A stretch of 64,000 nt of DNA from Candidatus Multivoradales bacterium (GTDB taxonomy: Bacteria; Acidobacteriota; Thermoanaerobaculia; Multivoradales; JAHEKO01): assembly GCA_965224065.1 (NCBI GenBank), contig CBDCYF010000005.1, forward strand, positions 2,751,616-2,815,615, given 5' to 3'. The translations under genes and the position numbers were made by a program. Shown piece after piece: positions 2,542 to 59,390 of this stretch; position 1 is the stretch's first letter; each line of letters begins with the position of its first letter. The notes under the pieces are model-generated. The model did no database searches, was not told the origin of the DNA, and saw nothing but the letters and a program-made list of their open reading frames with translations.

Positions 2542-2642
2542 TTCCTCCGTTTTTGAGGTTAAAGACTCGACCGAGAACAGCGTCGTCGGCGGCTCTCGGT
2601 GGAATGACCGGGCGGGGAATATAGCATGAGAATCGGCTAGCC

Positions 2643-3362
2643 ATGGGCGTGACGCGGCTGGAGAAGATCGCCCGCAAGCTCTCGCGCGAGGTCGCCGGGC
2701 TCGAGTTCTCGTTTCCGGTCACCCATGTGTACAACCCGCTCGAATACGCCTGGGCGGCTCACGGCGCCTACTTGCGCCGGTTCGGTCGAGGGAACAAGCA
2801 GGTGGTCTTTCTCGGCATGAACCCGGGACCCTGGGGCATGAGCCAGACCGGGGTCCCCTTTGGGGAGGTCACGGCGGTCAAGGACTGGATGCGCCTCGAG
2901 GCCGAGGTCGGCCACCCGGCCCGCGAGCACCCCAAGCGGCCCGTCGAGGGGTTCGCGTGCCGCCGCAGCGAGGTCAGCGGCCGCCGCCTCTGGGGCTGGG
3001 CTCGGTCTCGATTCGAAACCCCGGAAAGGTTTTTCTCCCGCTTCTTTGTCGCCAACTACTGCCCGCTGGTTTTTCTCGAGTCGAGCGGTCGCAACCGCAC
3101 CCCCGACCGCTTGCCCGCCGTGGAGCGGCGGCCTCTGCTCGAGGTCTGCGATCGGGCGCTCGCGGCTAGTGTCGGGGTCTTGGCGCCCGAGTGGGTGATT
3201 GGAGTGGGCCGGTTTGCCGAATCACGGGCACGGGCAGCGCTTGAAGGAACGGATGTCGAGATCGGCCGGATTCTCCATCCCAGCCCGGCCAGCCCGGCGG
3301 CCAACCGCGGCTGGGAGGACAAGATCGAATCGGAGCTGAAAGCGCTGGAGATCGGGCTCTGA
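2643..3362 (+). CDS. Uracil-DNA glycosylase, family 3 (SMUG-type).
   Basis: Motif A GMNPGPWGMSQTGVPFG and motif B HPSPASP match the SMUG1 signatures GMNPGP and HPSP. The protein is 239 aa. Confidence 0.7.
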   Translation: MGVTRLEKIARKLSREVAGLEFSFPVTHVYNPLEYAWAAHGAYLRRFGRGNKQVVFLGMNPGPWGMSQTGVPFGEVTAVKDWMRLEAEVGHPAREHPKRPVEGFACRRSEVSGRRLWGWARSRFETPERFFSRFFVANYCPLVFLESSGRNRTPDRLPAVERRPLLEVCDRALAASVGVLAPEWVIGVGRFAESRARAALEGTDVEIGRILHPSPASPAANRGWEDKIESELKALEIGL

Positions 3363-3395
3363 CGGGTTCTTTGCCAGTCCTCATGCTAGGTTAGA

Positions 3396-4517
3396 TTGGT
3401 GGTCGAGAATCGCGCCAAGGGCGCTGCGCCCGGGCGCTCGCTGCTGATCGCGGCGGCGTTCGTCATCGTCGTTGCGGGGCTGAGGGCCGCCGCCGAGATT
3501 CTCCAGCCCCTGCTGCTGGCGGTCTTTATCGCCGTCCTGAGCTTTCCATTTTTGGAGTGGCTGCGTCGTTGCGGCGTGCGCACCGCGCTGGCGGTCGTTG
3601 CAACAGTCTTTGCCGACCTGGCCTTGCTGGTCGCGCTGGGTCTTCTGATCTCCGGGGCGGTCAACGAGTTTGCGTCCACCGCGCCGAGCTATGTGGCGGC
3701 GCTCATCGAGAAGGGCAAAACGGCGCTTGCGGCGCTCGAAGAGCGTGGAGTCAATCTCTCCGAATGGGTGGCCCTCGAGCCGATCGACCCACGCCAGCTC
3801 GTGGATGTGGTCGGTGGGATCGTGGGTGGCACCGTCCGCGGCGTGGTCTCGGTCTTTTCGGGAATCACCCTGGTGGCGGTGACCCTCATCTTTGTCCTCC
3901 ACGAGCTGGTCGTCTTCCCGGGCAAGCTCCGCACGGCCCTCGGCGGACCCGACCCCATGCGGCACTTCGAGAGCGTCGTCCGGGAGGTTCAGCACTATCT
4001 CGGCATCAAGACCGTGGTCAGCCTCGGGACCGGCTTGATCATCGGCGGCTGGGCCTGGATCTTGGGGGTGGATTTCCCCTTGCTGTGGGGGCTCGCCGCC
4101 TTTTTGCTGAACTACATTCCGTTTCTGGGCTCGTTTATCGCGGGAGTGCCCGCCGTGCTGGTGACCCTGGTGCAGTTCGGCTGGGGGCGCGCCCTGTTGC
4201 TGGCGCTCGGCTATCTGGCGGTCAATATCCTGATCGGAAACCTGCTCGAGCCCCATCTGATGGGCCGCCGGTTCGGCCTGTCGTCGACCGTGGTGATGGT
4301 GTCGTTGATGTTCTGGGGCTGGGTCTGGGGCCCGCTCGGGATGATCCTCTCCGTGCCTCTGACCACCACCTTGAAGATCGCCTTCCAGCACAGCGATGGG
4401 ATGGCCTGGGCGGCCGTGCTCCTGGGCCCCGGTGAGGCCCCGGAACCGGCTCGCGCGGCGGCCAAGAGTCCCCCGGAGAAAAACCCGGTCAAAGAGGGCT
4501 CGACCGCAAGTCCCTAG
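3396..4517 (+). CDS. AI-2E family transporter (UPF0118 / PerM-like) membrane protein.
   Basis: 373 aa, polytopic and hydrophobic throughout. The conserved C-terminal region is characteristic of the AI-2E family. The long antisense ORF 3381..5054 is rejected. Confidence 0.6.
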   Translation: MVVENRAKGAAPGRSLLIAAAFVIVVAGLRAAAEILQPLLLAVFIAVLSFPFLEWLRRCGVRTALAVVATVFADLALLVALGLLISGAVNEFASTAPSYVAALIEKGKTALAALEERGVNLSEWVALEPIDPRQLVDVVGGIVGGTVRGVVSVFSGITLVAVTLIFVLHELVVFPGKLRTALGGPDPMRHFESVVREVQHYLGIKTVVSLGTGLIIGGWAWILGVDFPLLWGLAAFLLNYIPFLGSFIAGVPAVLVTLVQFGWGRALLLALGYLAVNILIGNLLEPHLMGRRFGLSSTVVMVSLMFWGWVWGPLGMILSVPLTTTLKIAFQHSDGMAWAAVLLGPGEAPEPARAAAKSPPEKNPVKEGSTASP

Positions 4518-21299: not shown

Positions 21300-21338
21300 C
21301 GGGAGATCCTACGCCACGCGGGGGGCGTCCGGTCGGGG

Positions 21339-21380
21339 CGGCGTCCGGCGGCATCCGGCGGCATCCGGCGGCATCCGCTA
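21339..21380. repeat. Short tandem repeat of a 10-nt unit (GGCATCCGGC), about 4 copies.
   Basis: The run ggcgtccggc ggcatccggc ggcatccggc ggcatccgct sits just upstream of the ORF at 21391. Confidence 0.5.
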
Positions 21381-27298: not shown

Positions 27299-29950
27299 AT
27301 GAGCAGCGACAGTGATCCGCGGCGCGACATCGACCCCGTAGAGACCCGGGAGTGGAAGGACGCCCTGGGCGCCGTGATCGAGCGGGACGGTCCCGAACGG
27401 GCGCACTTCCTGATCGAGTCCCTGGTCGACAAGGCGCGCCGCTCGGGCGCGTATCTTCCCTACAACGCCACGACGGCGTACGCCAACACCATCCCTCCGC
27501 ATCTGGAGAAAAAGCGCCGCGGAGATCCGGCGCTCGAGCGCAGGATCAAGTCGATCATCCGCTGGAACGCCATGGCGATGGTGGTCCGGGCGAACAAGAA
27601 GGGCACCGCCCTGGGCGGGCACATCGCGTCGTACCAGTCGGTAGCCAATCTTTTCGAGATCGGTTTCAACCACTTCTTCCACGCTCCGAGCGACGACCAC
27701 GGGGGCGACTTGGTCATGTTCCAGGGGCACAGCTCGCCGGGGATCTATGCTCGCGCTTATCTCGAGGGTCGTATCAGCGAGCAACAGCTCCGGAACTTTC
27801 GGGAGGAAGTCGACGGCGAGGGTCTGTCGTCGTACCCCCACCCGTGGTTGATGCCGGGGTTCTGGCAGTTCCCGACGGTGTCGATGGGGCTTTCCTCGAT
27901 CACCGCGATCTACCAGGCGAGGTTTATGAAGTACCTCCACAACCGCGGCATTCTCGATACGTCGCGCCGCAAGGTCTGGGCCTTTCTGGGCGACGGTGAG
28001 ATGGACGAACCGGAGTCGCTCGGGGCGATCTCGCTCGGCTCGCGCGAGAAGCTGGACAACCTGATCTTTGTCATCAACTGCAACCTGCAACGGCTCGACG
28101 GACCGGTGCGTGGCAACGGCAAGATCATCCAGGAGCTCGAGGCGGTGTTCCGCGGCGCCGGCTGGAACGTCCTCAAGGTGGTCTGGGGGTCGAACTGGGA
28201 TCCGCTACTGGCGAGGGACATCAACGGCGTCCTCCGTCAGCGGATGGAGGAAGTCGTCGACGGCGAGTACCAGGCCTATGTGTCGGGCGACGGCGCGCTG
28301 GTGCGGGACCATTTCTTTGGCGAGTACCCGGAGCTCGCCGAGATGGTGGCCGACATGTCGGACGAGGATCTGTGGCGGCTGAAGAGAGGCGGTCACGATC
28401 CGGCCAAGGTGTATGCCGCCTACGCCGCGGCGGTCGAGCACACCGGCCGGCCGACCGTCATCCTGGCGAAGACGGTCAAGGGCTATGGCATGGGCGAGGC
28501 CGGTGAAGGCCAGAACATCACCCACCAGCAGAAAAAGCTCGGCGACGAGGCGCTGCGTCAATTTCGGGACCGGTTCAACATTCCGATCACCGATGAGCAG
28601 ATCGACGATCTGCCCTTCTACCGCCCCGAGGACGACTCGGCCACGATGCGCTATCTCCGGGAGCGCCGCGAAGCGCTGGGTGGTTATCTGCCGGTGCGCG
28701 CCCCCCGGGCCGAGACGCTCGAAGTGCCGGATCTCTCGGCGTTCAGCGCCTTGCTCGAAGGCTCGGGGGAGCGCGAGCTTTCCACCACCATGGTCTTTGT
28801 GCGCATCCTGATGACGCTCGCCCGCAACAAGGCGATCAAGGACCGCATCGTTCCGATCGTCGCCGACGAGGCCCGCACCTTTGGCATGGAGGGGATGTTT
28901 CGCCAGATCGGGATCTACTCTCCGGCGGGTCAGCTCTACACCCCCGAAGACGCGGACCAGCTCGCCTACTACCGCGAGGAGACCCACGGCCAGATTCTGC
29001 AGGAGGGGATCTCCGAAGCGGGGGCGCTGTCTTCGTGGTTGGCTGCCGGTACGGCCTACGCCAACCACGGGCTCCACATGATCCCGTTCTTTATCTTCTA
29101 TTCGATGTTCGGTTTTCAGCGGGTCGGAGATCTGATCTGGCAGGCAGGCGACATGCGGGCGCGGGGCTTCTTGATGGGCGCCACCTCCGGGCGGACGACC
29201 CTCAACGGCGAGGGACTCCAGCACCAGGACGGCCACAGCCACCTGCTCTCCTCGGCGCTCCCCAACTGTGTCTCCTACGACCCGGCGTTCAGCTACGAGC
29301 TGGCGGTCATCGTCCAGGACGGTCTGCGCCGCATGTATGCCGAGAACGAAGACGTCTTCTACTACATCACCGTTCACAACGAGAACTACCCGCAGCCTTC
29401 GATGCCGGCCGGAGCGGAGGACGGCATCCGCAAGGGCATGTACTTACTGAGCGAGGGCACAGCGGGCGAAGGCGGCCACGTCCAGTTGCTGGGCAGCGGG
29501 TCGATCTTGCGCGAGGTGATCGCAGCGTCCGATCTGCTGCAAAAGGACTTCGGGATCACGGCCGATATCTGGAGCGTGCCGAGTTTTACCGAGCTGCGGC
29601 GCGACGGTCAGTCGGTCGAGCGCTGGAACCGGCTCCATCCGGGCGGCGAGTCGCGGGTCTCGTATGTCGAGCAATGCCTCGGCCCACGAAACGGACCGGT
29701 GGTCGCCGCCAGCGACTGGGTGCGGGCGGTGCCCGATCAGATCCGGTCATTGATCGGCCGGCGCTACCGGGTGCTCGGTACCGATGGTTTTGGCCGCAGC
29801 GACAGCCGGCAGCAGTTGCGCTCGTTCTTCGAGGTCGATCGCCGCCACGTCGTGGTGGCGGCCCTCGACGCCCTCGGCGACGATCGCGTCGCGGAGGCGA
29901 TCGCCAGATACAAAATCGACACCGAAGGACCGGACCCCTGGACGGTTTGA
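27299..29950 (+). CDS. aceE: Pyruvate dehydrogenase E1 component, homodimeric type.
   Basis: 883 aa, with a typical homodimeric E1 N-terminus (DPVETREWKDALG) and ThDP-binding region. Confidence 0.9.
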   Translation: MSSDSDPRRDIDPVETREWKDALGAVIERDGPERAHFLIESLVDKARRSGAYLPYNATTAYANTIPPHLEKKRRGDPALERRIKSIIRWNAMAMVVRANKKGTALGGHIASYQSVANLFEIGFNHFFHAPSDDHGGDLVMFQGHSSPGIYARAYLEGRISEQQLRNFREEVDGEGLSSYPHPWLMPGFWQFPTVSMGLSSITAIYQARFMKYLHNRGILDTSRRKVWAFLGDGEMDEPESLGAISLGSREKLDNLIFVINCNLQRLDGPVRGNGKIIQELEAVFRGAGWNVLKVVWGSNWDPLLARDINGVLRQRMEEVVDGEYQAYVSGDGALVRDHFFGEYPELAEMVADMSDEDLWRLKRGGHDPAKVYAAYAAAVEHTGRPTVILAKTVKGYGMGEAGEGQNITHQQKKLGDEALRQFRDRFNIPITDEQIDDLPFYRPEDDSATMRYLRERREALGGYLPVRAPRAETLEVPDLSAFSALLEGSGERELSTTMVFVRILMTLARNKAIKDRIVPIVADEARTFGMEGMFRQIGIYSPAGQLYTPEDADQLAYYREETHGQILQEGISEAGALSSWLAAGTAYANHGLHMIPFFIFYSMFGFQRVGDLIWQAGDMRARGFLMGATSGRTTLNGEGLQHQDGHSHLLSSALPNCVSYDPAFSYELAVIVQDGLRRMYAENEDVFYYITVHNENYPQPSMPAGAEDGIRKGMYLLSEGTAGEGGHVQLLGSGSILREVIAASDLLQKDFGITADIWSVPSFTELRRDGQSVERWNRLHPGGESRVSYVEQCLGPRNGPVVAASDWVRAVPDQIRSLIGRRYRVLGTDGFGRSDSRQQLRSFFEVDRRHVVVAALDALGDDRVAEAIARYKIDTEGPDPWTV

Positions 29951-29965
29951 GGCCGGGGAAGAAAA

Positions 29966-31360
29966 ATGGCTGAGCCCCAACCGATCCTGGTTCCCGACAT
30001 CGGCGATCTCGACAAGGTCGACGTCGTCGAGGTGCTCGTGGCCGCCGGCGATACCGTGGCCCCGGACGACTCGTTGATCACCTTGGAGAGCGACAAGGCG
30101 ACAATGGATGTTCCGTCGACCCATGGGGGCGTGGTCCGCGAGGTCAAGGTCAAGGCCGGCGATGCGGTGAGCGAAGGCGATCTGATCCTGACGCTCGAGG
30201 TGGAGGACGCCTCGGGCGATGCCGAACCGGCCGATGCCTCTGTCGACACCAAACGGCCGCCACGGGGGGCGGCCGCTTCAGTCCCGCCCGACGAAAGCTC
30301 CCCGGCCGAAGCGGCCGGTGCCCCTGCCGGCCGTCCCGGCCCCTCCGATACACCCCCAACTGAAGCGGCCGGCGTCCCTGCCGGCCGTCTCGGCCCGCCC
30401 GACACACCCCCGACTGAAGCGGCCGGCGCCTCTGCCGGCCGCCCGGAGCCGCCCGCCGATCTCTCCAACGTCTACGCCAGCCCGTCGGTCCGCCGGTTGG
30501 CGCGAGAGCTAGGGGTCGATCTGCGCCAGGTCCGCGGTAGCGGCCGCAAGGGTCGGGTACTCGCCGGCGACGTCCAGGCCTGGGTCAACAAGACGCTGTC
30601 CGAGCCCGCCGCGCGGGGCGCCTTTGCGCTTCCCGATCTGCCGCCGGTGGACTTTTCCCGGTTTGGCGAGATCGAGCGTCAGGTGTTGTCGAGGGTGCAG
30701 AAGATCTCCGGGCCCAATCTCCAGCGGAGCTGGCTCCACGCTCCCCACGTCACGCAGCACGACGAGGCGGACGTCACCGAGTTGGAGGCCTTCCGGCAAG
30801 CGCACAAAGCGCGAGCCAAGGAGGAAGGGTTCAGCCTGACCCCGCTGGCGTTTGTGATGAAGGCGGTGGTGGCGGCGCTCAGGGAGTTTCCGCGTCTCAA
30901 CGCCTCACTCGATCCGGACGGCGAGCATGTAGTGCTCAAGAAGTACTACCACCTGGGGATCGCCGTGGACACCGAGGACGGTCTGATCGTCCCGGTGCTG
31001 CGGGACGTGGACAAAAAGGGGGTCTTCGAGCTGGCCCGTGAGCTGGGCGAGGTCAGCGCGCAGGCGCGGGCGCGCAAGCTGCGCCCCGACCAACTGCGCG
31101 GGGCTAGCTTCACCATCTCGAGCCTGGGCGGGATCGGCGGGACTTTTTTCACCCCGATCATCAACGTGCCCGAAGTGGCGATTCTCGGCGTCTCGCGCTC
31201 GCGGAACCAACCGGTGTGGATGGACGGCGAGTTTGTGCCGCGTCTCATCCTTCCCCTGTCGCTTTCCTACGACCATCGCGCGATCGACGGCGCCATGGCG
31301 GTGCGTTTCACGACGTATCTGAGCGAAGTCCTTTCCGACATCCGGAGACTGGTGCTGTGA
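29966..31360 (+). CDS. aceF: Dihydrolipoamide acetyltransferase E2 (single lipoyl domain), with a repeat-derived linker.
   Basis: Lipoyl motif ESDKATMDVPS, a peripheral subunit-binding domain (SPSVRRLARELGVDL) and the catalytic DHRAIDG. The linker contains 3 tandem 57-nt repeats. Confidence 0.85.
   Translation: MAEPQPILVPDIGDLDKVDVVEVLVAAGDTVAPDDSLITLESDKATMDVPSTHGGVVREVKVKAGDAVSEGDLILTLEVEDASGDAEPADASVDTKRPPRGAAASVPPDESSPAEAAGAPAGRPGPSDTPPTEAAGVPAGRLGPPDTPPTEAAGASAGRPEPPADLSNVYASPSVRRLARELGVDLRQVRGSGRKGRVLAGDVQAWVNKTLSEPAARGAFALPDLPPVDFSRFGEIERQVLSRVQKISGPNLQRSWLHAPHVTQHDEADVTELEAFRQAHKARAKEEGFSLTPLAFVMKAVVAALREFPRLNASLDPDGEHVVLKKYYHLGIAVDTEDGLIVPVLRDVDKKGVFELARELGEVSAQARARKLRPDQLRGASFTISSLGGIGGTFFTPIINVPEVAILGVSRSRNQPVWMDGEFVPRLILPLSLSYDHRAIDGAMAVRFTTYLSEVLSDIRRLVL
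30307..30460 (+). repeat. Three in-frame tandem copies (period about 57 nt, or 19 aa) of a GC-rich hairpin repeat unit, inside the aceF linker.
   Basis: The unit gaagcggccggcgcccctgccggccg... is repeated 3 times. It carries the type B hairpin core GGCCGGC-N-GCCGGCC also found in intergenic copies at 31367, 31565 and 45761. It is translated as PTEAAGxPAGRxGPxDTP. Confidence 0.7.
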
Positions 31361-31593
31361 GAACGCCTGAAGCGGCCGGCGCCCCTGCCGGCCAATCTCG
31401 GGCGGGGGCAAGCCCCGCCCCTACCTCCGGACAGTTTCCCCTTGAAGCGCCCGGCGCCCCTTCGGGCGGTTGGGCCGTTGTCCCAGCGGGCCTGCGGACC
31501 GTCGCCTCCTCCGGCCAATCTCGGGCGGGGGCTAGCCCCGCCCCTACCTTCGGACGGTTTCCCCCTGAAGCGGCCGGCGCCTCTGCCGGCCGT
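31361..31593. repeat. Composite REP-like repeat cluster in the aceF-lpdA intergenic space (type B hairpin, type A hairpin, then type A and type B again).
   Basis: Type B ctgaagcggccggcgcccctgccggcc at 31367-31393 and 31565-31591. Type A gggcgggggcaagccccgccc (8-bp stem GGGCGGGG/CCCCGCCC) at 31400-31420 and 31524-31544. The flanks of each copy are near-identical. Confidence 0.7.
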
Positions 31594-31616
31594 TTCCTGG
31601 CCTAAGGTTCTCGTCG

Positions 31617-33428
31617 ATGCCCGAGCTGCTCAAAGTCACCATCCCGGAGCTGGGCACCGACGAAAAAGTCGAAGTGGTCGAGGTCCTGGTCGCCGAGGGA
31701 GACCGGATCCAAAAAGACGACGGCCTGATCACGCTCGAGAGCGACAAGGCCTCGATGGACGTGCCGTCGCCGGCCGCCGGAGCGGTGCGCGAGCTCCGGG
31801 TCAAGGTCGGTGACCACGTCGGCGAAGGCGACCTGATCCTGGAGCTCGAGGTCGAGGCCGATGCCACGACCCGTTCTGTAGAAGCCGCTGGTGCTGCGGC
31901 CTCCCCCGGTTCCGGAGGGCCCACCGACCCTGTAGGGGCGGGGCTTGCCCCCGCCCGTGGGGCCACGGGGCTTGCCCCCGCCCGCGAGACGACGCCACCC
32001 CTGCCGTCGAACGCCGACCTCCACGCCGACGTCCTGGTGCTGGGCGCCGGTCCCGGGGGCTACACGGCCGCCTTCCGGGCCGCCGATCTGGGCAAGAAGG
32101 TCGTCCTGGTCGAGCGCTACCCGGTCCTCGGTGGCGTTTGTCTCAACGTCGGTTGTATCCCGTCCAAAGCACTGCTCCACGTCGCCCGGGTGATCTCCGA
32201 GGCGCGCGCGGCCGAGGAGCACGGTGTCTACTTCGGTGCTCCAAAGATCAGCCTTGAACAATTGCGTGCCTGGAAAACAAGTGTGGTGGAGCGTCTGACC
32301 AAGGGGCTCGCCGCGATGGCCGGCAAGCGCAAGGTCGAGATCCTCCAGGGGACCGGGCGCCTCTCCGGCCCAAAGACTCTCCAAGTCGAGACTTCAGACG
32401 GCGAGAAACTCGTGTCCTTCGACCAGGCGATCCTCGCCGCGGGATCGCGGTCGATCGAGATCCCGGGCTTTCCCTACGACGATCCTCGGGTCATGGATTC
32501 GACCGGGGCGCTCGAGCTGGCCGATGTTCCCGAGCGCTTGCTCTTGGTGGGTGGCGGCATCATTGGTCTCGAGATGGCCATGGTCTACGGCGAGCTGGGC
32601 TCAAAGCTCACGGTTGTCGAGCTGCTTGACGGTCTCGTCCCGGGATGCGATCGGGACTTGGTGCGTCCGCTCGAACGGAGGCTAAAAAAGGCCCTTGGCG
32701 CCGAGATTCACTTGAACACCAAGGTGACGGCGGTCGAGGCCGGCGAGGACGGCCTACGCGCCCGGCTCGAGGGGCCCAAGGCGCCCGAGTCGGCGGACTT
32801 CGACCGCGTGCTGGTGGCCGTGGGGCGTCGGCCCAACGGCGACCGCCTGGGCGTCGAGGCCGCCGGTGTTGCGCTCGACGAGCGCGGCTTTGTTCCCGTC
32901 GACCGCCAGATGCGCACCAACGTCCCCCATATCTTTGCGATTGGGGACCTGGTCGGCCAGCCGATGCTGGCGCACAAGGCGACCCACGAGGGGAAGGTCG
33001 CGGCGGAAGCCGTGGCTGGGGAGAAGAGTTTTTTCGACGCGCGAGTGATTCCTTCGGTGGCCTACACCGATCCCGAGATCGCCTGGGTGGGTTTGACCGA
33101 GACCGCGGCGGAACAGCAGGGTGTCGCCTACGAAAAGAGTGTCTTCCCCTGGTCGGCGAGCGGTCGCGCGCTTGGCATGGGGCGCACCGACGGCTCGACC
33201 AAGATCCTCTACGAACCGGAAACCGGCCGCATCCTGGGTGGCGGCATCGTCGGACCCGGTGCCGGCGACCTGATCGCAGAGCTGGCGCTCGCCATCGAGA
33301 TGGACGCCGAGGCGGGAGACCTGGCGCTCACGATCCATCCCCACCCGACGCTCTCCGAGACGCTGTCCCTCGCCGCCGAGGTCTTTGAAGGCACGGTCAC
33401 CGATCTCTACCTGCCGAAGAAAAAGTAG
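31617..33428 (+). CDS. lpdA: Dihydrolipoyl dehydrogenase E3 with an N-terminal lipoyl domain.
   Basis: N-terminal lipoyl domain (ESDKASMDVPS), then a linker that contains two type A hairpin repeats, then an FAD/NAD domain with redox-active CLNVGCIPSK and a C-terminal dimerisation HPHPTLSE. Confidence 0.85.
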   Translation: MPELLKVTIPELGTDEKVEVVEVLVAEGDRIQKDDGLITLESDKASMDVPSPAAGAVRELRVKVGDHVGEGDLILELEVEADATTRSVEAAGAAASPGSGGPTDPVGAGLAPARGATGLAPARETTPPLPSNADLHADVLVLGAGPGGYTAAFRAADLGKKVVLVERYPVLGGVCLNVGCIPSKALLHVARVISEARAAEEHGVYFGAPKISLEQLRAWKTSVVERLTKGLAAMAGKRKVEILQGTGRLSGPKTLQVETSDGEKLVSFDQAILAAGSRSIEIPGFPYDDPRVMDSTGALELADVPERLLLVGGGIIGLEMAMVYGELGSKLTVVELLDGLVPGCDRDLVRPLERRLKKALGAEIHLNTKVTAVEAGEDGLRARLEGPKAPESADFDRVLVAVGRRPNGDRLGVEAAGVALDERGFVPVDRQMRTNVPHIFAIGDLVGQPMLAHKATHEGKVAAEAVAGEKSFFDARVIPSVAYTDPEIAWVGLTETAAEQQGVAYEKSVFPWSASGRALGMGRTDGSTKILYEPETGRILGGGIVGPGAGDLIAELALAIEMDAEAGDLALTIHPHPTLSETLSLAAEVFEGTVTDLYLPKKK

Positions 33429-43518: not shown

Positions 43519-45759
43519 GTGGCGGCCCTGGACATCCTGATCGTCGGTGGCGGACCCGCCGGCACGGCGGTGGCCTTTCGCGCCCGCGAGCTGGGTCTCG
43601 ATGCCCTGGTCATCGACTACGACGATCTGATGAAACGCATCCGCGACTATTCCAAGGACAAGCTCATCCTGCCGGCCTTTGGTGGTGGCGACAAGGTGTG
43701 CTTTCCCAGGGGTGGCGATCTCGTCGAGTGTCTTCAGTTTCAACCGATCGACAAGGACGACATGTGCGCCGAGTGGAAGGCGCTTTACGAGAAGCACGAC
43801 ATCGCCAGGCGTGTTGGACTTGAATTGACCGGGCTCGAGCCCTTGGAGGATCGCTATCGCGCCGTGACGTGGGATCACAACCGGCGCACCGAGGAGTGCT
43901 TTGAGGCCCGCCACGTTGTGCTGGCGATCGGTCGCGGGGTGCCGCGGCGCTTCGACATCCCGGGAAATACCGATGGCATCGCCTATCGGCTGGCGGACCC
44001 CGAGGACTACGTCGGCAGCCCGGCGTGCGTGGTGGGTGGCGGCACCTCGGCCGCCGAAGCGGTCATCGCGATCTCCAACGCCAAGTCGCAGGCCGGCGAC
44101 GAGAGCTCGGTCTACTGGTCCTACCGCGGCGACAAGATGCCGCGTGTCTCAAAGTCGCTGGCCGGCGAGTTCTTTGCCGCCTATGTCGGCAACGGCAACA
44201 TTCGCTACTTCCGCAAGAGTGAGCCGGCTGCGATTTCCGTCGGCGACGACCGGCGCGAATACCTCGCCGTCCGGGTCGACCGCCACCAAATGGCCGGCCG
44301 GCCCAACGAGCTGACACTCCTCGAGTTCCCAAAGGAGATGTGCCTTGCCTGTATCGGGGAGGATATTCCCGAAGCCCTGCTCAACTCGTTTGGAATTCAT
44401 CTTGCGACCGGCGGTCCCAGGGGGCGCAAGCGGATGGTCGTCAATCGCTGCCTCGAGACCTGTCGCCCCAACGTCTATCTGATCGGCGACCTGCTGTCCC
44501 AGGCCTATTTCGAGACCGAGGACTTCGATGCCGACCCGGCCGGTTTTCGTGAGATCAAACATCGCGGCAACATCAAATCCGCCCTGCGCGACGGGGTGCG
44601 GGTGGCGCAGATCATCGAGCAGCGGCTGGCCGGCAAGGAGGATGTCGTAGTCGACATCGAAGACGCCGAGGATACGGGCTCCGGTGTCTCGATTGCCGCG
44701 GTCTCCGCGCCTCTGGGATCGAGCGGGCCGCCGCGGGAAAGTCTCGGTGAGGGTCGCTCCGAGACCGAGGCCGAGGCGTTCGTGATTCGGGTGCTGCCGA
44801 CCGGTGTCGAAGAAGACGAGTACCCGGTTCGCTCGCACGGGATCACCACGATCGGGAGCGGGGACTGCGACCTGTCGTTTCCGAGCGATTCGATGCTTGC
44901 GCCGTGCCACGGCTCGGTCTCCCATGGAGAAGAGGGCTACTTTCTGCGCGATGACGGCAGCTCGACCGGGGTGTTTCTCAAGATCGCGCCGGCGCGCAAG
45001 GTCGAGCTCTCGAGCGGCGACCTGCTCCGCGTGGGCCGGCAGTTTCTGGTGCTCCAGCGAGAGAACGGTGTGGCGTCGCTCGTCCACTACTCGGCCGATG
45101 GCGAGGAGCGGGGGCAGCTCGCGCTCGAGCCCGGGAGAACCTGGGTGCTCGGGCGCGGCAACCCCGACCGGGTGCTCGACGCCGGGGACAAGACCCTGTC
45201 GCGGCGGCACCTTGCGGTCTCGTTTGAAAAAGGGGTCGTTCGAGTCAAGGACCTCAAAAGCGTCAACGGGACGTTTCTTCGCGTCCGCCCGGCGCGCCGG
45301 CTCGAACACGGCGACCAGATCCGGCTCGGACAGCAACTCTTGACCTTCAGCCTACGGGGCGAGGCCGCGCTGGACCCGGGAATCGAATCGCGGTCGGCGT
45401 CGGTTGGCGGCGCTGTCGAAGGCGGTACCGAGGCGACACCGGCGCCCGGCCCCGGACAGGCGAGTGTGGTCTTTCGCGGCTCGGGATCTGATGCTCCCAT
45501 CCCGGTGGCGGCGGGTCAGAGCCTGTGCGAGGCGGCCGAGGCCGCCGGAGTCGAGATCACCGCCGAATGCCATTCCGGGATTTGCGGCAGCGATCCGATC
45601 CGGATCGTCTCGGGCGCCGAGTACCTCGCCGGGGACGCTGCCGACCAGGAGCGCGAGACCCTCGAGGAACTCTGCGAGGTCGAGCCGGGCTCGTGCCGGC
45701 TGGCCTGCATGACACGGATCAACGGCCCGGTCGTCGTCGAGCTCCTGAGTTCGGACTGA
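43519..45759 (+). CDS. Multidomain redox protein: FAD/NAD(P)-binding pyridine-nucleotide oxidoreductase domain, then two FHA domains, then a C-terminal Cys-rich ferredoxin-like ([2Fe-2S]?) domain.
   Basis: N-terminal ILIVGGGPAGTAVA (FAD) and VVGGGTSAAEAV (NAD(P)) Rossmann motifs. FHA-1 is ITTIGSGDCDLSF...GYFLRDDGSSTGVFL. FHA-2 is TWVLGRGNPDRVLD...SRRHLAVSF...DLKSVNGTFL. The C-terminus carries CHSGICGSD...CRLAC. 746 aa. Confidence 0.65.
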   Translation: MAALDILIVGGGPAGTAVAFRARELGLDALVIDYDDLMKRIRDYSKDKLILPAFGGGDKVCFPRGGDLVECLQFQPIDKDDMCAEWKALYEKHDIARRVGLELTGLEPLEDRYRAVTWDHNRRTEECFEARHVVLAIGRGVPRRFDIPGNTDGIAYRLADPEDYVGSPACVVGGGTSAAEAVIAISNAKSQAGDESSVYWSYRGDKMPRVSKSLAGEFFAAYVGNGNIRYFRKSEPAAISVGDDRREYLAVRVDRHQMAGRPNELTLLEFPKEMCLACIGEDIPEALLNSFGIHLATGGPRGRKRMVVNRCLETCRPNVYLIGDLLSQAYFETEDFDADPAGFREIKHRGNIKSALRDGVRVAQIIEQRLAGKEDVVVDIEDAEDTGSGVSIAAVSAPLGSSGPPRESLGEGRSETEAEAFVIRVLPTGVEEDEYPVRSHGITTIGSGDCDLSFPSDSMLAPCHGSVSHGEEGYFLRDDGSSTGVFLKIAPARKVELSSGDLLRVGRQFLVLQRENGVASLVHYSADGEERGQLALEPGRTWVLGRGNPDRVLDAGDKTLSRRHLAVSFEKGVVRVKDLKSVNGTFLRVRPARRLEHGDQIRLGQQLLTFSLRGEAALDPGIESRSASVGGAVEGGTEATPAPGPGQASVVFRGSGSDAPIPVAAGQSLCEAAEAAGVEITAECHSGICGSDPIRIVSGAEYLAGDAADQERETLEELCEVEPGSCRLACMTRINGPVVVELLSSD

Positions 45760-45760
45760 A

Positions 45761-45830
45761 GCGGCCGGCGCCCCTGCCGGTCGTTGGGGCCGGTGTCCCG
45801 CCGGCCGACCCTACCCGGCCGGAAAATCGA
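45761..45830. repeat. REP-like hairpin element (type B) between convergent genes. Probably a bidirectional terminator.
   Basis: tgaagcggccggcgcccctgccgg..., the same unit as at 31367 and inside aceF. Followed by further GC palindromes (ccggccgg). Confidence 0.6.
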
Positions 45831-47814
45831 CTCGGATAAACGTGTACATCCGGCCGGCCACGCCGTCTCGGACCGCGGGCCGGAAGGTCGCTCCCTTGGC
45901 GGCTGCCATCGCGGCCTCCTTGAGCTTGCGCTTGAACGATGGGCGCTTGACGCTGGTCGAGAGCACCTTGCCGTGCTCGTCCACCAGCGCGGTGACCATA
46001 ATGGTCGTCGCGGTCCTTGGCGGTCCGTCTTCGAGCTTTGGTGGCGGGAGATGGAGGAGCACCGGTGGGATCACACCGAGAGCCCCCGGTTGATAGACCT
46101 CCTGGGTACGGCCGCGAGGCGGCGGTCCTCCCCGCGGGTCGCCGGGTGGTGGCGGACGGTGCTCCGGCGGGGGTTGATCTCCGGGTGGCCCACCGGGCTG
46201 CGGCCGCCGGCCCTCCGGACCGGTTCCGGGTGGCCCGGCTTCCGGAGCGGGGCGGCCCGATGGGTCGGACGGCGGCGTCGGCTCGGCTCGAGGCGCGGAT
46301 TCTTCGGGTGCGGGAATCGCCGCGGCTTCCGCTTCCGTAGGCGGTGGCTGCGGGACGGCGGTCAGCGCGAGATCGGCGTCGCCGGTCTCCGGGGTCCAGC
46401 GTTCCGCGGGATCCACGGCGACGGTCTCGCCACGCTCCGCCACCGCGTCGCCATCGCCATCGCCATCGCCACCGCCCCCGGATCTCCAAAGAAACCACCC
46501 GACGGCGGCGAGCGCGAGCAGCGCCGCCACTCCCAATCCGGCGGCTACCATCGGGAGCCGTTTCCCCTTTCCCGAGGCCGCGGGCGCCGGCTGGGTCGCT
46601 GGCGCCACCGTGGTGGGCTCGTCGGCCAGCATCTCGCGATACTTGGCGAGCTCCGGGACCTCGCCGTGCCGGGCCAGGGCCTTGTCCAGCAGCCGCTGGG
46701 CCTTGTTCTGCTTTCCGGCCGCCAGAATCTTGTCGATCTTGGCGGCATCCTTGGTGAGTTGCCGCAGGTCGACCGTCTTGGCCTTCTTTCCCGTCATTTC
46801 GGTGACCCGTGACGGTTCGGGTGTGGTGACCATGCCAAAGTCGCGATCCAGCCGGCTTTGGGTGGAGCCGGGCTCCTTGGATTCGGAGATCTTCGGCAAC
46901 GCGACCGCCGTGGCGCGAATGGTCGTGTCGAGCTCGGTGCGGAGAGAGCTTTTTGGGTTCCGGAATCCCGTGAGCGCTTCCGCAAATTCCATCGCGCTCG
47001 CGTGCCGGTTGTCGGGCTCTTTCTCGAGCGCCTTGAGCACGGCCTCGCGCAGCCCGGTCTCGATCCGGCCGTCTTTGTCCGTCTCGTCAAACGCGCGCGG
47101 AGCCTGGAAAAGATGGCAGCCGGCGAGCTCGGTAAAACTGTCGCCCTCGAAGGGGTACTCGCCGGTCAAGAGCTGGTAGAGCATCACCCCGAACGAATAG
47201 ATATCGCTTCGGTGGTCGAGCTCATCCGAGCCCGCCTTGGCCGAGAACTGCTCGGGCGAGCTGTAGCGGACCTTGCCGAGAAAAACGCCGGTCTGTGTCA
47301 ACTGGGCGACGGCTTCCAGGTTCTTGGCAATGCCCAAATCGATCAGCTTGACCACCGGACCGCCGGAGTGGTCCGAAGCCAGCATGATGTTGTCCGGTGA
47401 GATGTCGCGGTGGACGAACTTCTGATCGTGGAGATAGCCCAGAGCTTCGAGTGCCTGGGTCGCGAGCGCGATCGTCAGGTCGACGCTCGGTGGCCCCGTG
47501 GCCTTCAAGACCGCGTTCAGCCCGACGCCGTCGATGAACTCCATGACGATGTAGGCGGTTCCCTCGTCGGTCACCGCGAAGTCGTAGAGCTGTGCGATGT
47601 TGGGGTGCTTGAGGCGAATCGCCATCTTCGCCTCGCGCAGGAAGCGGCGCTGTATCTCTTCCTTGGACGCCGCTTGGGGCCGCAGGACCTTGATGACCCG
47701 GATCTCCTCCAGCAGCCGGTGCTTGACCTTGTAGACCGAGCCGATGCCACCCTCCCCGATCTTGGCGAGGATCTCGTACTTGCCCTCGAGCATCTCCTGG
47801 AGCGGCATGGTCAT
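45811..47814 (-). CDS. Serine/threonine protein kinase with a TM segment, a Pro/Gly-rich periplasmic region and a C-terminal TonB-C-like domain.
   Basis: Kinase motifs GEGGIGSVYKV, HRDISPDNIML, DLGIAK, SPEQ. TM segment MVAAGLGVAALLALAAVGWFLW. A (GD)n run. The C-terminal about 90 aa (PPVLLHLPPPKL...GKVLSTSVKRPSF...LKEAAMAAAKGATFRPA...) resembles the TonB C-terminal fold. Confidence 0.75.
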   Translation of the reverse strand: MTMPLQEMLEGKYEILAKIGEGGIGSVYKVKHRLLEEIRVIKVLRPQAASKEEIQRRFLREAKMAIRLKHPNIAQLYDFAVTDEGTAYIVMEFIDGVGLNAVLKATGPPSVDLTIALATQALEALGYLHDQKFVHRDISPDNIMLASDHSGGPVVKLIDLGIAKNLEAVAQLTQTGVFLGKVRYSSPEQFSAKAGSDELDHRSDIYSFGVMLYQLLTGEYPFEGDSFTELAGCHLFQAPRAFDETDKDGRIETGLREAVLKALEKEPDNRHASAMEFAEALTGFRNPKSSLRTELDTTIRATAVALPKISESKEPGSTQSRLDRDFGMVTTPEPSRVTEMTGKKAKTVDLRQLTKDAAKIDKILAAGKQNKAQRLLDKALARHGEVPELAKYREMLADEPTTVAPATQPAPAASGKGKRLPMVAAGLGVAALLALAAVGWFLWRSGGGGDGDGDGDAVAERGETVAVDPAERWTPETGDADLALTAVPQPPPTEAEAAAIPAPEESAPRAEPTPPSDPSGRPAPEAGPPGTGPEGRRPQPGGPPGDQPPPEHRPPPPGDPRGGPPPRGRTQEVYQPGALGVIPPVLLHLPPPKLEDGPPRTATTIMVTALVDEHGKVLSTSVKRPSFKRKLKEAAMAAAKGATFRPAVRDGVAGRMYTFIRVDFPAG

Positions 47815-59222: not shown

Positions 59223-59390
59223 CGGGCGGGGGCAAGCCCCGCCCCTACATCATCTGTGTTGGCATTCCGTGGCGGACGGGACGCCCCCACGTCGCTAACG
59301 CTAGCGGGCGGGGGTAAGGTCGTCCCCTACACGGTCGTTTCTATCCTGACGGGAAGACCCAATGTAGGGGCGGGGCTTGCCCCCGCCCGT
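59223..59390. mobile_element. MITE/REP-like element with 28-bp perfect terminal inverted repeats that contain the type A hairpin.
   Basis: 59223-59250 cgggcgggggcaagccccgcccctacat is the exact reverse complement of 59363-59390 atgtaggggcggggcttgcccccgcccg. A degenerate third copy lies at 59304-59331. The element sits between convergent genes. Confidence 0.6.

Follow-up and report, generated by a model that had tools for sequence, protein, structure and literature searches.

Rickettsia palindromic elements (RPEs), said to have been described by Ogata et al. in Science in 2000, are palindromic repeats found in frame in many genes and tolerated in surface or loop regions of the proteins, and they have become the textbook example of "selfish DNA in protein-coding genes"; the longer ones, such as RPE-1, are AT-rich, about 100-150 bp in length and specific to Rickettsia. 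Systems that pair repetitive extragenic palindromes (REPs) with REP-associated tyrosine transposases (RAYTs), and REP doublets forming hairpins (REPINs), were reportedly treated by Bertels and Rainey in 2011. The E2 chains of 2-oxoacid dehydrogenases have native inter-domain linkers that are rich in alanine and proline, and ordinary E2 linkers are not known to be built from a genome-wide DNA repeat, nor is their DNA known to form perfect GC hairpins of 8-9 bp. Two super-families of REPs, GTAG and CGTC, have been defined, and the shorter RPEs, RPE-4 and RPE-6, were grouped with the CGTC REPs (Di Nocera, De Gregorio and Rocco 2013, BMC Genomics 14:522; PMC3733652). Intragenic GTAG and CGTC REPs were catalogued in several species, a minority of copies lying in frame inside genes, and frequent hosts are UvrA and error-prone polymerases (PMC3733652). 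The supplementary list of the same study names 2-oxoglutarate dehydrogenase E2 and dihydrolipoamide acetyltransferase as hosts of GTAG-17 in Opitutus terrae, and the E2 and E1 of pyruvate dehydrogenase (PDH) as hosts of CGTC-1 in Sphingopyxis alaskensis (PMC3733652). Since the inserts sit in "flexible linkers or loops", intragenic REPs were proposed to be neutral (PMC3733652). Here, a 64-kb stretch of DNA from a Candidatus Multivoradales bacterium, called the window throughout, is considered; it carries two hairpin repeats, type A and type B, both between genes and inside aceF and lpdA, which encode PDH E2 and E3. Most probably, REPs of the GTAG family landed in the linker-coding DNA of these two genes and were tolerated there. 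This reading draws on the family to which the hairpins belong, on their dispersal and coding context, on the lack of the aceF units in the closest orthologue of AceF, on how old the lpdA insert is and on the recurrence of such inserts in related lineages.

Hairpins of type A and type B are REPs

The full type A unit, GTAGGGGCGGGGCTTGCCCCCGCCC, opens with a GTAG head and continues as a palindrome with a stem of 8 bp and a loop of 5 nt; type B, whose core is GAAGCGGCCGGCGCCCCTGCCGGCC, has a stem of 7-9 bp and a loop of 4-6 nt. The type A pattern GGGCGGGG-N5-CCCCGCCC was found at 31400, 31523, 31936, 59224 and 59368 (0.36 expected), and the type B core, with up to three mismatches, at 30308, 30362 and 30416 in aceF, at 31369 and 31567 in the aceF-lpdA spacer and at 45758 (0.00 expected in shuffles). 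One degenerate 25-nt pattern for both types gave 10 exact matches against 0.00 expected, so that the observation is far beyond chance. An earlier reading of the window, made from the letters alone (the sequence-only reading), had claimed that two hairpin types with perfect stems recur; this holds, given 6 and 5 pattern matches far above expectation and single-strand DNA folds in which the units form stable GC hairpins (-11 to -15 kcal/mol, z -2.2 to -3.4). About 15 units are present at 4 loci in the window. A generic detector for a tag plus a hairpin was noisy (32 matches vs 6-21 in Markov controls) and was used only to confirm known units and an inverted copy in aceF.

Both types have the short, imperfect palindrome of REPs (20-40 bp, with a GC-rich stem and a small loop). 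GTAG-GGGCGGGG is present in all five perfect type A copies in the window, so type A carries the GTAG tag in full, and type B is tied to this tag only through its relatives. Altogether, the two hairpins are REPs of the GTAG-tagged super-family, type B being a GAAG-headed variant of the GTAG-GGCCGGC palindrome. Only the hairpin and about 10 nt are common to the copies, and the flanking coding sequence differs. As read from the sequence, five of six reading frames are open in each unit, and the encoded peptides are rich in Ala, Pro, Gly, Arg and Glu. No Rfam family reached its gathering score anywhere in the window, a consensus scan of 29900-32100 found no terminator- or promoter-like site at the REPs, and no REP has a T tract.

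The units resemble the GTAG REPs of Di Nocera and colleagues in their GTAG head, their GC-rich stem-loop of about 20-25 nt, their position 3' of open reading frames (ORFs), their head-to-head dimers and their clusters, and differ from them in the host, a relative of Thermoanaerobaculia, in the REP sequences and in the GAAG on type B (PMC3733652). With REP/RAYT and REPIN systems (Nunvar et al. 2010, PMC2817692; Corneloup et al. 2021, PMC8266576) they have in common the REP anatomy, the inverted doublets (59224/59364 and 30254/30308) and, in other genomes, RAYT-like Y1 genes with these REPs on their flanks; unlike in those systems, which have been described mostly from proteobacteria, no such gene is seen in the window. 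The likeness to RPEs, judged by description only, is one of behavior and not of membership, the units of the window being 25-40 nt long, GC-rich and acidobacterial.

REP units within the aceF and lpdA linkers

According to the ORF list, the translations and Pfam, aceF (29966-31360, plus strand) encodes a PDH E2 of 464 aa, and lpdA (31617-33428, plus strand) an E3 of 603 aa with an N-terminal lipoyl domain. Both are intact ORFs with full domain sets, and the REP units lie wholly inside them and in frame. In AceF, Pfam places the lipoyl domain at aa 7-77, the E3-binding domain at 169-204 and the catalytic domain at 235-463, which leaves a lipoyl-to-E3-binding linker of 91 aa (aa 78-168; 30197-30469, plus strand). 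Within this linker, a tandem array extends over 30283-30455 on the plus strand, with 3.1 copies of a 54-nt (18-codon) unit and one type B hairpin per unit, as found by Tandem Repeats Finder (TRF), pattern matches, a repeat family (D1) and folds. The cores are at 30308-30332, 30362-30386 and 30416-30440 (plus strand), with spacings of 54 and 54 nt, and the translation reads (P)TEAAGxPAGRxGPxDTP. The sequence-only reading was right about three tandem type B units here and wrong about a period of 57 nt or 19 codons: TRF and the spacing give 54 nt and 18 codons, and the peptide that it quoted itself has 18 aa. Nor are three units the full count, for it overlooked a fourth, an inverted type-B-like REP on the minus strand at 30254-30282 (reverse complement CTGAAGCGGCCGCCCCCCGTGGCGGCCGT), which lies head-to-head with unit 1 and is translated RPPRGAAAS. 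This inverted unit has a compensatory G-C to C-G stem change and, in the RNA fold of the linker-coding sequence (-108.9 kcal/mol, z = -3.7), it pairs with unit 3. The aceF units thus occupy aa 97-161, between the lipoyl and E3-binding domains, and about 63 of the 91 linker residues, or some two thirds, are encoded by REP-derived codons. The linker compares with a median of 75 aa (interquartile range 70-82) in 74 orthologues. The 54-nt units have their spacers in common, which argues that they arose by tandem duplication.

In LpdA, Pfam places the lipoyl domain at aa 6-77 and the FAD/NAD domains from aa 138. A perfect type A GTAG REP, matching the consensus at 25/25 positions, lies in the intervening linker at 31932-31956 (plus strand), where it is read as VGAGLAPA (aa 106-113). 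It is followed at 31958-31985 (plus strand) by a second, degenerate copy in direct orientation, read as GATGLAPAR (repeat family D7, 79% identity), whose 5' arm is broken and no longer pairs. The two units (31931-31958 and 31958-31985) have the same orientation and an offset of 27 nt (9 codons). Two type A units in this linker had been claimed, correctly, and an opposite orientation, incorrectly: it is only relative to the intergenic copies that they run the other way. The units, at aa 106-123, lie between the lipoyl and FAD domains and account for 18 of 60 linker residues, the median linker length being 57 aa in 84 orthologues.

The Pfam boundaries of AceF and LpdA thus confirm the earlier placement of the inserts in inter-domain linkers; that their lengths are multiples of 3, also pointed out at the time, is automatic, since the ORFs are intact. 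Both linkers are within the normal range of lengths, and therefore REP sequence largely replaced the ancestral linker more than it lengthened it. The REP peptides TEAAGAPAGRPGPSDTPP and GAGLAPAR match native Ala/Pro-rich E2 linkers in composition and disorder, with lengths inside the orthologue range.

The same repeats between genes and in other genomes

Three extragenic loci are present in the window, and all three are at typical REP sites, one 3' of aceF, between co-directional genes, and two between convergent genes. The locus at 31361-31600 resembles a bacterial interspersed mosaic element (BIME) and is a cluster built from a 123-nt direct repeat (families D4 and D6), with units B(+) at 31369-31393, A(-) at 31400-31424, a degenerate B(+) at 31444-31468, A(-) at 31523-31547 and B(+) at 31567-31591. 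At 45758-45815, between convergent genes, a type B unit (+; 45758-45782) is followed by a GTAG-tagged hairpin (-; about 45786-45815). At this site the TGA of the CTGAAGC tag is the stop of the gene at 43519-45759, and the TAG of the GTAG tag is the stop of the minus-strand gene at 45811-47814; REP tags supply both stops (45757-45813), and REPs therefore reshaped both C-termini. The third locus, again between convergent genes, is an inverted pair of perfect type A units (families D6 and D7) at 59224-59248 (-) and 59364-59388 (+), with a degenerate type A copy near 59300-59325 between its two members. Inverted dimers and mosaics are therefore seen in the alternating orientations of 31361-31600 and in the inverted pairs 59224(-)/59364(+) and 30254(-)/30308(+). 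Elsewhere in the window, which has a GC content of 65.7%, the ORF list places aceE at 27299-29950, and a tandem repeat, GGCGGCATCC x4 with a period of 10, looks perfect at 21337-21377, where the crude gene map shows no ORF.

Species-representative genomes were scanned with a degenerate pattern for both types, and at least 117 loci with at least 136 matches were found in genomes other than the source. Among the matches listed, 75 of 136 are the exact type A 25-mer GTAGGGGCGGGGCTTGCCCCCGCCC in unrelated flanks, often beside other GTAGGGG-hairpins, and the hosts of this 25-mer include Hymenobacter, Chitinophaga, Acidobacteriota, Chloroflexia, Planctomycetota, Armatimonadota and others. Exact copies are seen, for example, at L010 1174-1198, L041 7583-7607 and L065 3410-3434. 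For type B, exact or near-exact GAAG-tagged copies are found, among the same matches, in Candidatus Multivoradales and in another acidobacterial metagenome-assembled genome (MAG), and GTAG-tagged versions of the stem-loop in Planctomycetota. Multivoradales belongs to Thermoanaerobaculia. With four loci in the window and this distribution elsewhere, the repeats are, as had been proposed, a dispersed family and not a local duplication. Arrays of inverted type B pairs that repeat about every 87 nt, BIME- or REPIN-like and unrelated to PDH genes, were also observed in Candidatus Multivoradales (OZ245024.1, L100 650-1250). As to the identity of GTAGGGGCGGGGCTTGCCCCCGCCC from Bacteroidota to Acidobacteriota, horizontal spread with RAYTs and strong constraint are both candidates.

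A conserved neighbour gene was considered as an explanation for the cross-phylum 25-mer and rejected, as an all-against-all BLAST of ORFs found no family common to most of the 117 loci listed. The only recurrent neighbour family among these loci is RAYT-like (4 loci by clustering, 5 by tblastn), with Y1-transposase genes next to or around REPs at L017, L059, L077, L079 and L098. Two of four tested RAYT-like proteins score above the Pfam Y1_Tnp cutoff (27 and 31 bits vs 23), and the best NCBIfam match is REP_Tyr_transpos, "REP-associated tyrosine transposase", at 55-64 bits, below the cutoff of 80. That RAYT-like genes adjoin these repeats in other genomes supports the earlier label "REP-like". 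Two of the RAYT-like Y1 genes (L017 6596-7426 and L059 5971-6603, both minus strand) themselves have an in-frame REP right after the HUH motif, as in ...MPNHIHFVVWL-NSVGAPLAGAHDANDAARAGASPAPT-LGQVV..., and the L059 copy is apparently disrupted downstream.

In-frame GTAG REPs are not confined to PDH genes. An ORF-spanning test gave many spurious ORFs in GC-rich loci, and intragenic cases were limited to four that Pfam confirmed in the scan sample: a nonribosomal peptide synthetase (NRPS) adenylation domain with a REP doublet, VGAGLAPAREGVNPSPT (L055 2-3613), a Y-family (ImuB-like) polymerase with two REP copies (L019 1740-3470), and a UvrA (L032 5307-8000) and a methyltransferase (L053 1918-2607), each with an in-frame REP. 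UvrA and error-prone polymerases, hosts of intragenic REPs in the earlier catalogue (PMC3733652), thus recur in the present sample.

Direction, age and recurrence of the insertions

The relatives of AceF and LpdA found by protein search (BLASTP) are from Thermoanaerobaculia and other Acidobacteriota MAGs, and none is closer than about 74-78% identity. The motif TEAAGxPAGR is in none of 17 AceF orthologues compared (the closest, at 76% identity, and 16 others), whose linkers are similar to that of the window in length and composition. The closest relative, locus L118 (76% identity in AceF, 78% in LpdA), has an aceF-lpdA spacer of 64 nt, in which one degenerate type B is the only unit, vs 256 nt and a five-unit cluster in the window; this sole unit aligns with the last unit of the window cluster, and type B is not detectable in the L118 aceF linker. 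Because the closest AceF orthologue is without the aceF units, REP DNA entered the genes and not the reverse, and the comparison of orthologues thus supports the direction proposed in the sequence-only reading. At the position of the type A unit of the window, the L118 LpdA linker has a slightly decayed type A, GTCGGGGCGAGGCGTGCCCCCGCCC (VVGARRAPAQ). For this reason the lpdA insertion looks old and most likely predates the split from L118; the aceF array would be either younger or lost in L118.

Linker REPs also appear in other related lineages. A Candidatus Multivoradales relative has the exact type B 25-mer in the same frame in its LpdA linker (TPEAAGAPAGR) and one type B copy in its AceF linker (TEAAGVPAGR). 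The LpdA linker of L121 has three GTAG-type units, one of them inverted. In L121, aceF (2624-4004) is called in two pieces (415 + 37 aa), possibly because of a frameshift or a misassembly close to the repeats, and its linker has type-B-like repeats in a different frame (LKRPASAPAE...). In the LpdA linker of L122 (4400-4520), another palindrome, GAAAGGGGAGGGCTCTCCCCTTTC, stands three times in tandem in units of 39 nt, read as GVERGGLSPFSKA x3; it is an independent family of palindromes in this linker. Among 240 orthologues fetched, REP-type linker peptides are found in at least 8 further LpdA and 1 AceF, and repeated hits in these linkers are thus seen across related lineages.

How REPs may have entered and stayed in the linkers

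REPs would have spread in the genome by RAYT-type single-strand transposition, with local recombination contributing, and, as the anatomy of the units suggests, rare copies would have landed in linker-coding DNA. There they would have been tolerated, being near-neutral for the protein, and slippage or unequal recombination would have amplified them. In aceF, a REPIN-like pair, with one unit inverted and one direct, would have come first and the tandem duplication of the 54-nt unit later; in lpdA, the 27-nt unit would have been duplicated once. The linker REPs probably survived because five of six frames are open, because the peptides resemble native linker and because linkers tolerate changes in sequence and length. 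Tolerance, which had also been proposed earlier, is supported by the intact ORFs, the complete domain sets and the normal linker lengths.

Several observations weigh against this account. The tag of type B in the window is GAAG, GTAG-tagged versions of the same stem-loop being found in other genomes, and tblastn with four RAYT-like proteins found no RAYT gene in the 64-kb window. Furthermore, 11 of about 15 units lie within 1.75 kb (30254-31985), and the core of aceF unit 3 (30416-30440) is identical at 25/25 positions, its private CCTCT loop variant included, to the intergenic copy at 31567-31591. The two lie 1.15 kb apart, and their identity suggests local, recent copying between gene and spacer; given the clustering as well, local copying may matter more than transposition. 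The aceF cores differ between units at 2/25 positions, all in the loop or wobble-compatible, as compared with 9-13/29 in the spacers (Fisher p 0.005-0.047), and between the window and L118 no part of the lpdA linker, which is otherwise poorly alignable, is as well conserved as its type A unit. These two patterns are hard to square with purely neutral drift and hint at conversion between copies or at selection. Gene conversion templated by other copies would account for each of them, selection for mRNA structure being a minority alternative.

The units might have come into the linkers not by transposase-mediated insertion but from the adjacent aceF-lpdA cluster, through local recombination or gene conversion and then slippage; this rival, which concerns the mechanism only and leaves the elements as REPs, is possible but clearly not favored. 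The clustering of the units, the match between unit 3 and the copy at 31567 and the absence of a RAYT from the window all speak for it, as do the 54-nt and 123-nt direct repeats, which indicate local duplication. However, the same REP types occur in linkers of other lineages, and REPs are found in unrelated genes with no neighbouring cluster (the NRPS of L055 and the polymerase of L019). Moreover, the ancestral spacer seemingly had one type B, yet the lpdA of L118 already has a type A. It is rather unlikely that the hairpins are kept by selection at the nucleic-acid level, and hence exapted, whether for ribosome pausing, for stability or processing of PDH mRNA or for a REP-binding protein. The contrast between aceF cores and spacers, the conservation of the lpdA type A (25/25 to consensus) and the low energy of the aceF linker RNA are in line with such selection, but the same pattern is expected from gene conversion with other genomic copies, and the sample is very small, with three units and a single relative. 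In addition, decay is visible both in the second copy of lpdA and in that of L118, orthologues function without any hairpin, and palindromes and frames differ between lineages, which fits opportunism.

The genes could themselves have been the source, a linker-coding segment being copied to intergenic sites, as more units lie in or near aceF and lpdA than elsewhere in the window. This is very improbable, given that the exact type A 25-mer is found in many phyla with unrelated flanks and near RAYT-like genes, that type B arrays unrelated to PDH exist in Multivoradales, that the motif is not in the AceF orthologues compared and that the copies have only the hairpin and about 10 nt in common, with no flanking coding sequence. 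Chance is less credible still: linkers rich in GCC, CCC and GGC codons in a window of this GC content might mimic intergenic hairpins through their GC-rich Ala/Pro/Gly codons, but 0.00 occurrences are expected, in dinucleotide-preserving shuffles, of the 25-nt patterns found 6 and 10 times, and the 25/25 match is to a sequence common to more than 70 loci elsewhere.

Insertion of GTAG-family REPs into linker-coding DNA, with tolerance thereafter, is thus the preferred reading. A stronger version, in which the intragenic hairpins are actively maintained, either by continual gene conversion or RAYT-linked processing or by selection for mRNA or DNA structure at PDH domain boundaries, is improbable, although there are hints in its favor: the higher conservation of cores than of spacers, the conservation of the lpdA REP across a split of 78% identity and the related lineages' own linker REPs. 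If they were maintained, the PDH linkers of Thermoanaerobaculia would be a recurrent, possibly adaptive landing pad in which REP turnover tunes linker length and sequence.

Significance of REP-derived linkers

The phenomenon is already published for other bacteria and, conceptually, adds little beyond the catalogue of intragenic GTAG and CGTC REPs (PMC3733652) and the work on RPEs in Rickettsia. The novelty is limited to the organism and its REP sequences, to E3 as a host, to the degree of tandem amplification, to retention across a lineage split and to repeated insertions within the clade. In particular, unlike the REPs of Di Nocera and colleagues, those of the window and its relatives are hosted by the lipoyl-FAD linker of an E3 (LpdA), were amplified to four units that fill some two thirds of an E2 linker, and show retention across a split together with repeated independent linker insertions in one clade. 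Annotators can take peptides such as GAGLAPA, EAAGAPAGR and GGGKPRPY as the mark of a REP insertion and not of homology. REPs can drive variation in linker length and sequence, and the finding supports the idea that DNA of this kind lands safely above all in disordered linkers. The aceF and lpdA linkers are a clear case of non-coding repeat DNA turned protein sequence, one that recurs across a poorly studied acidobacterial class.

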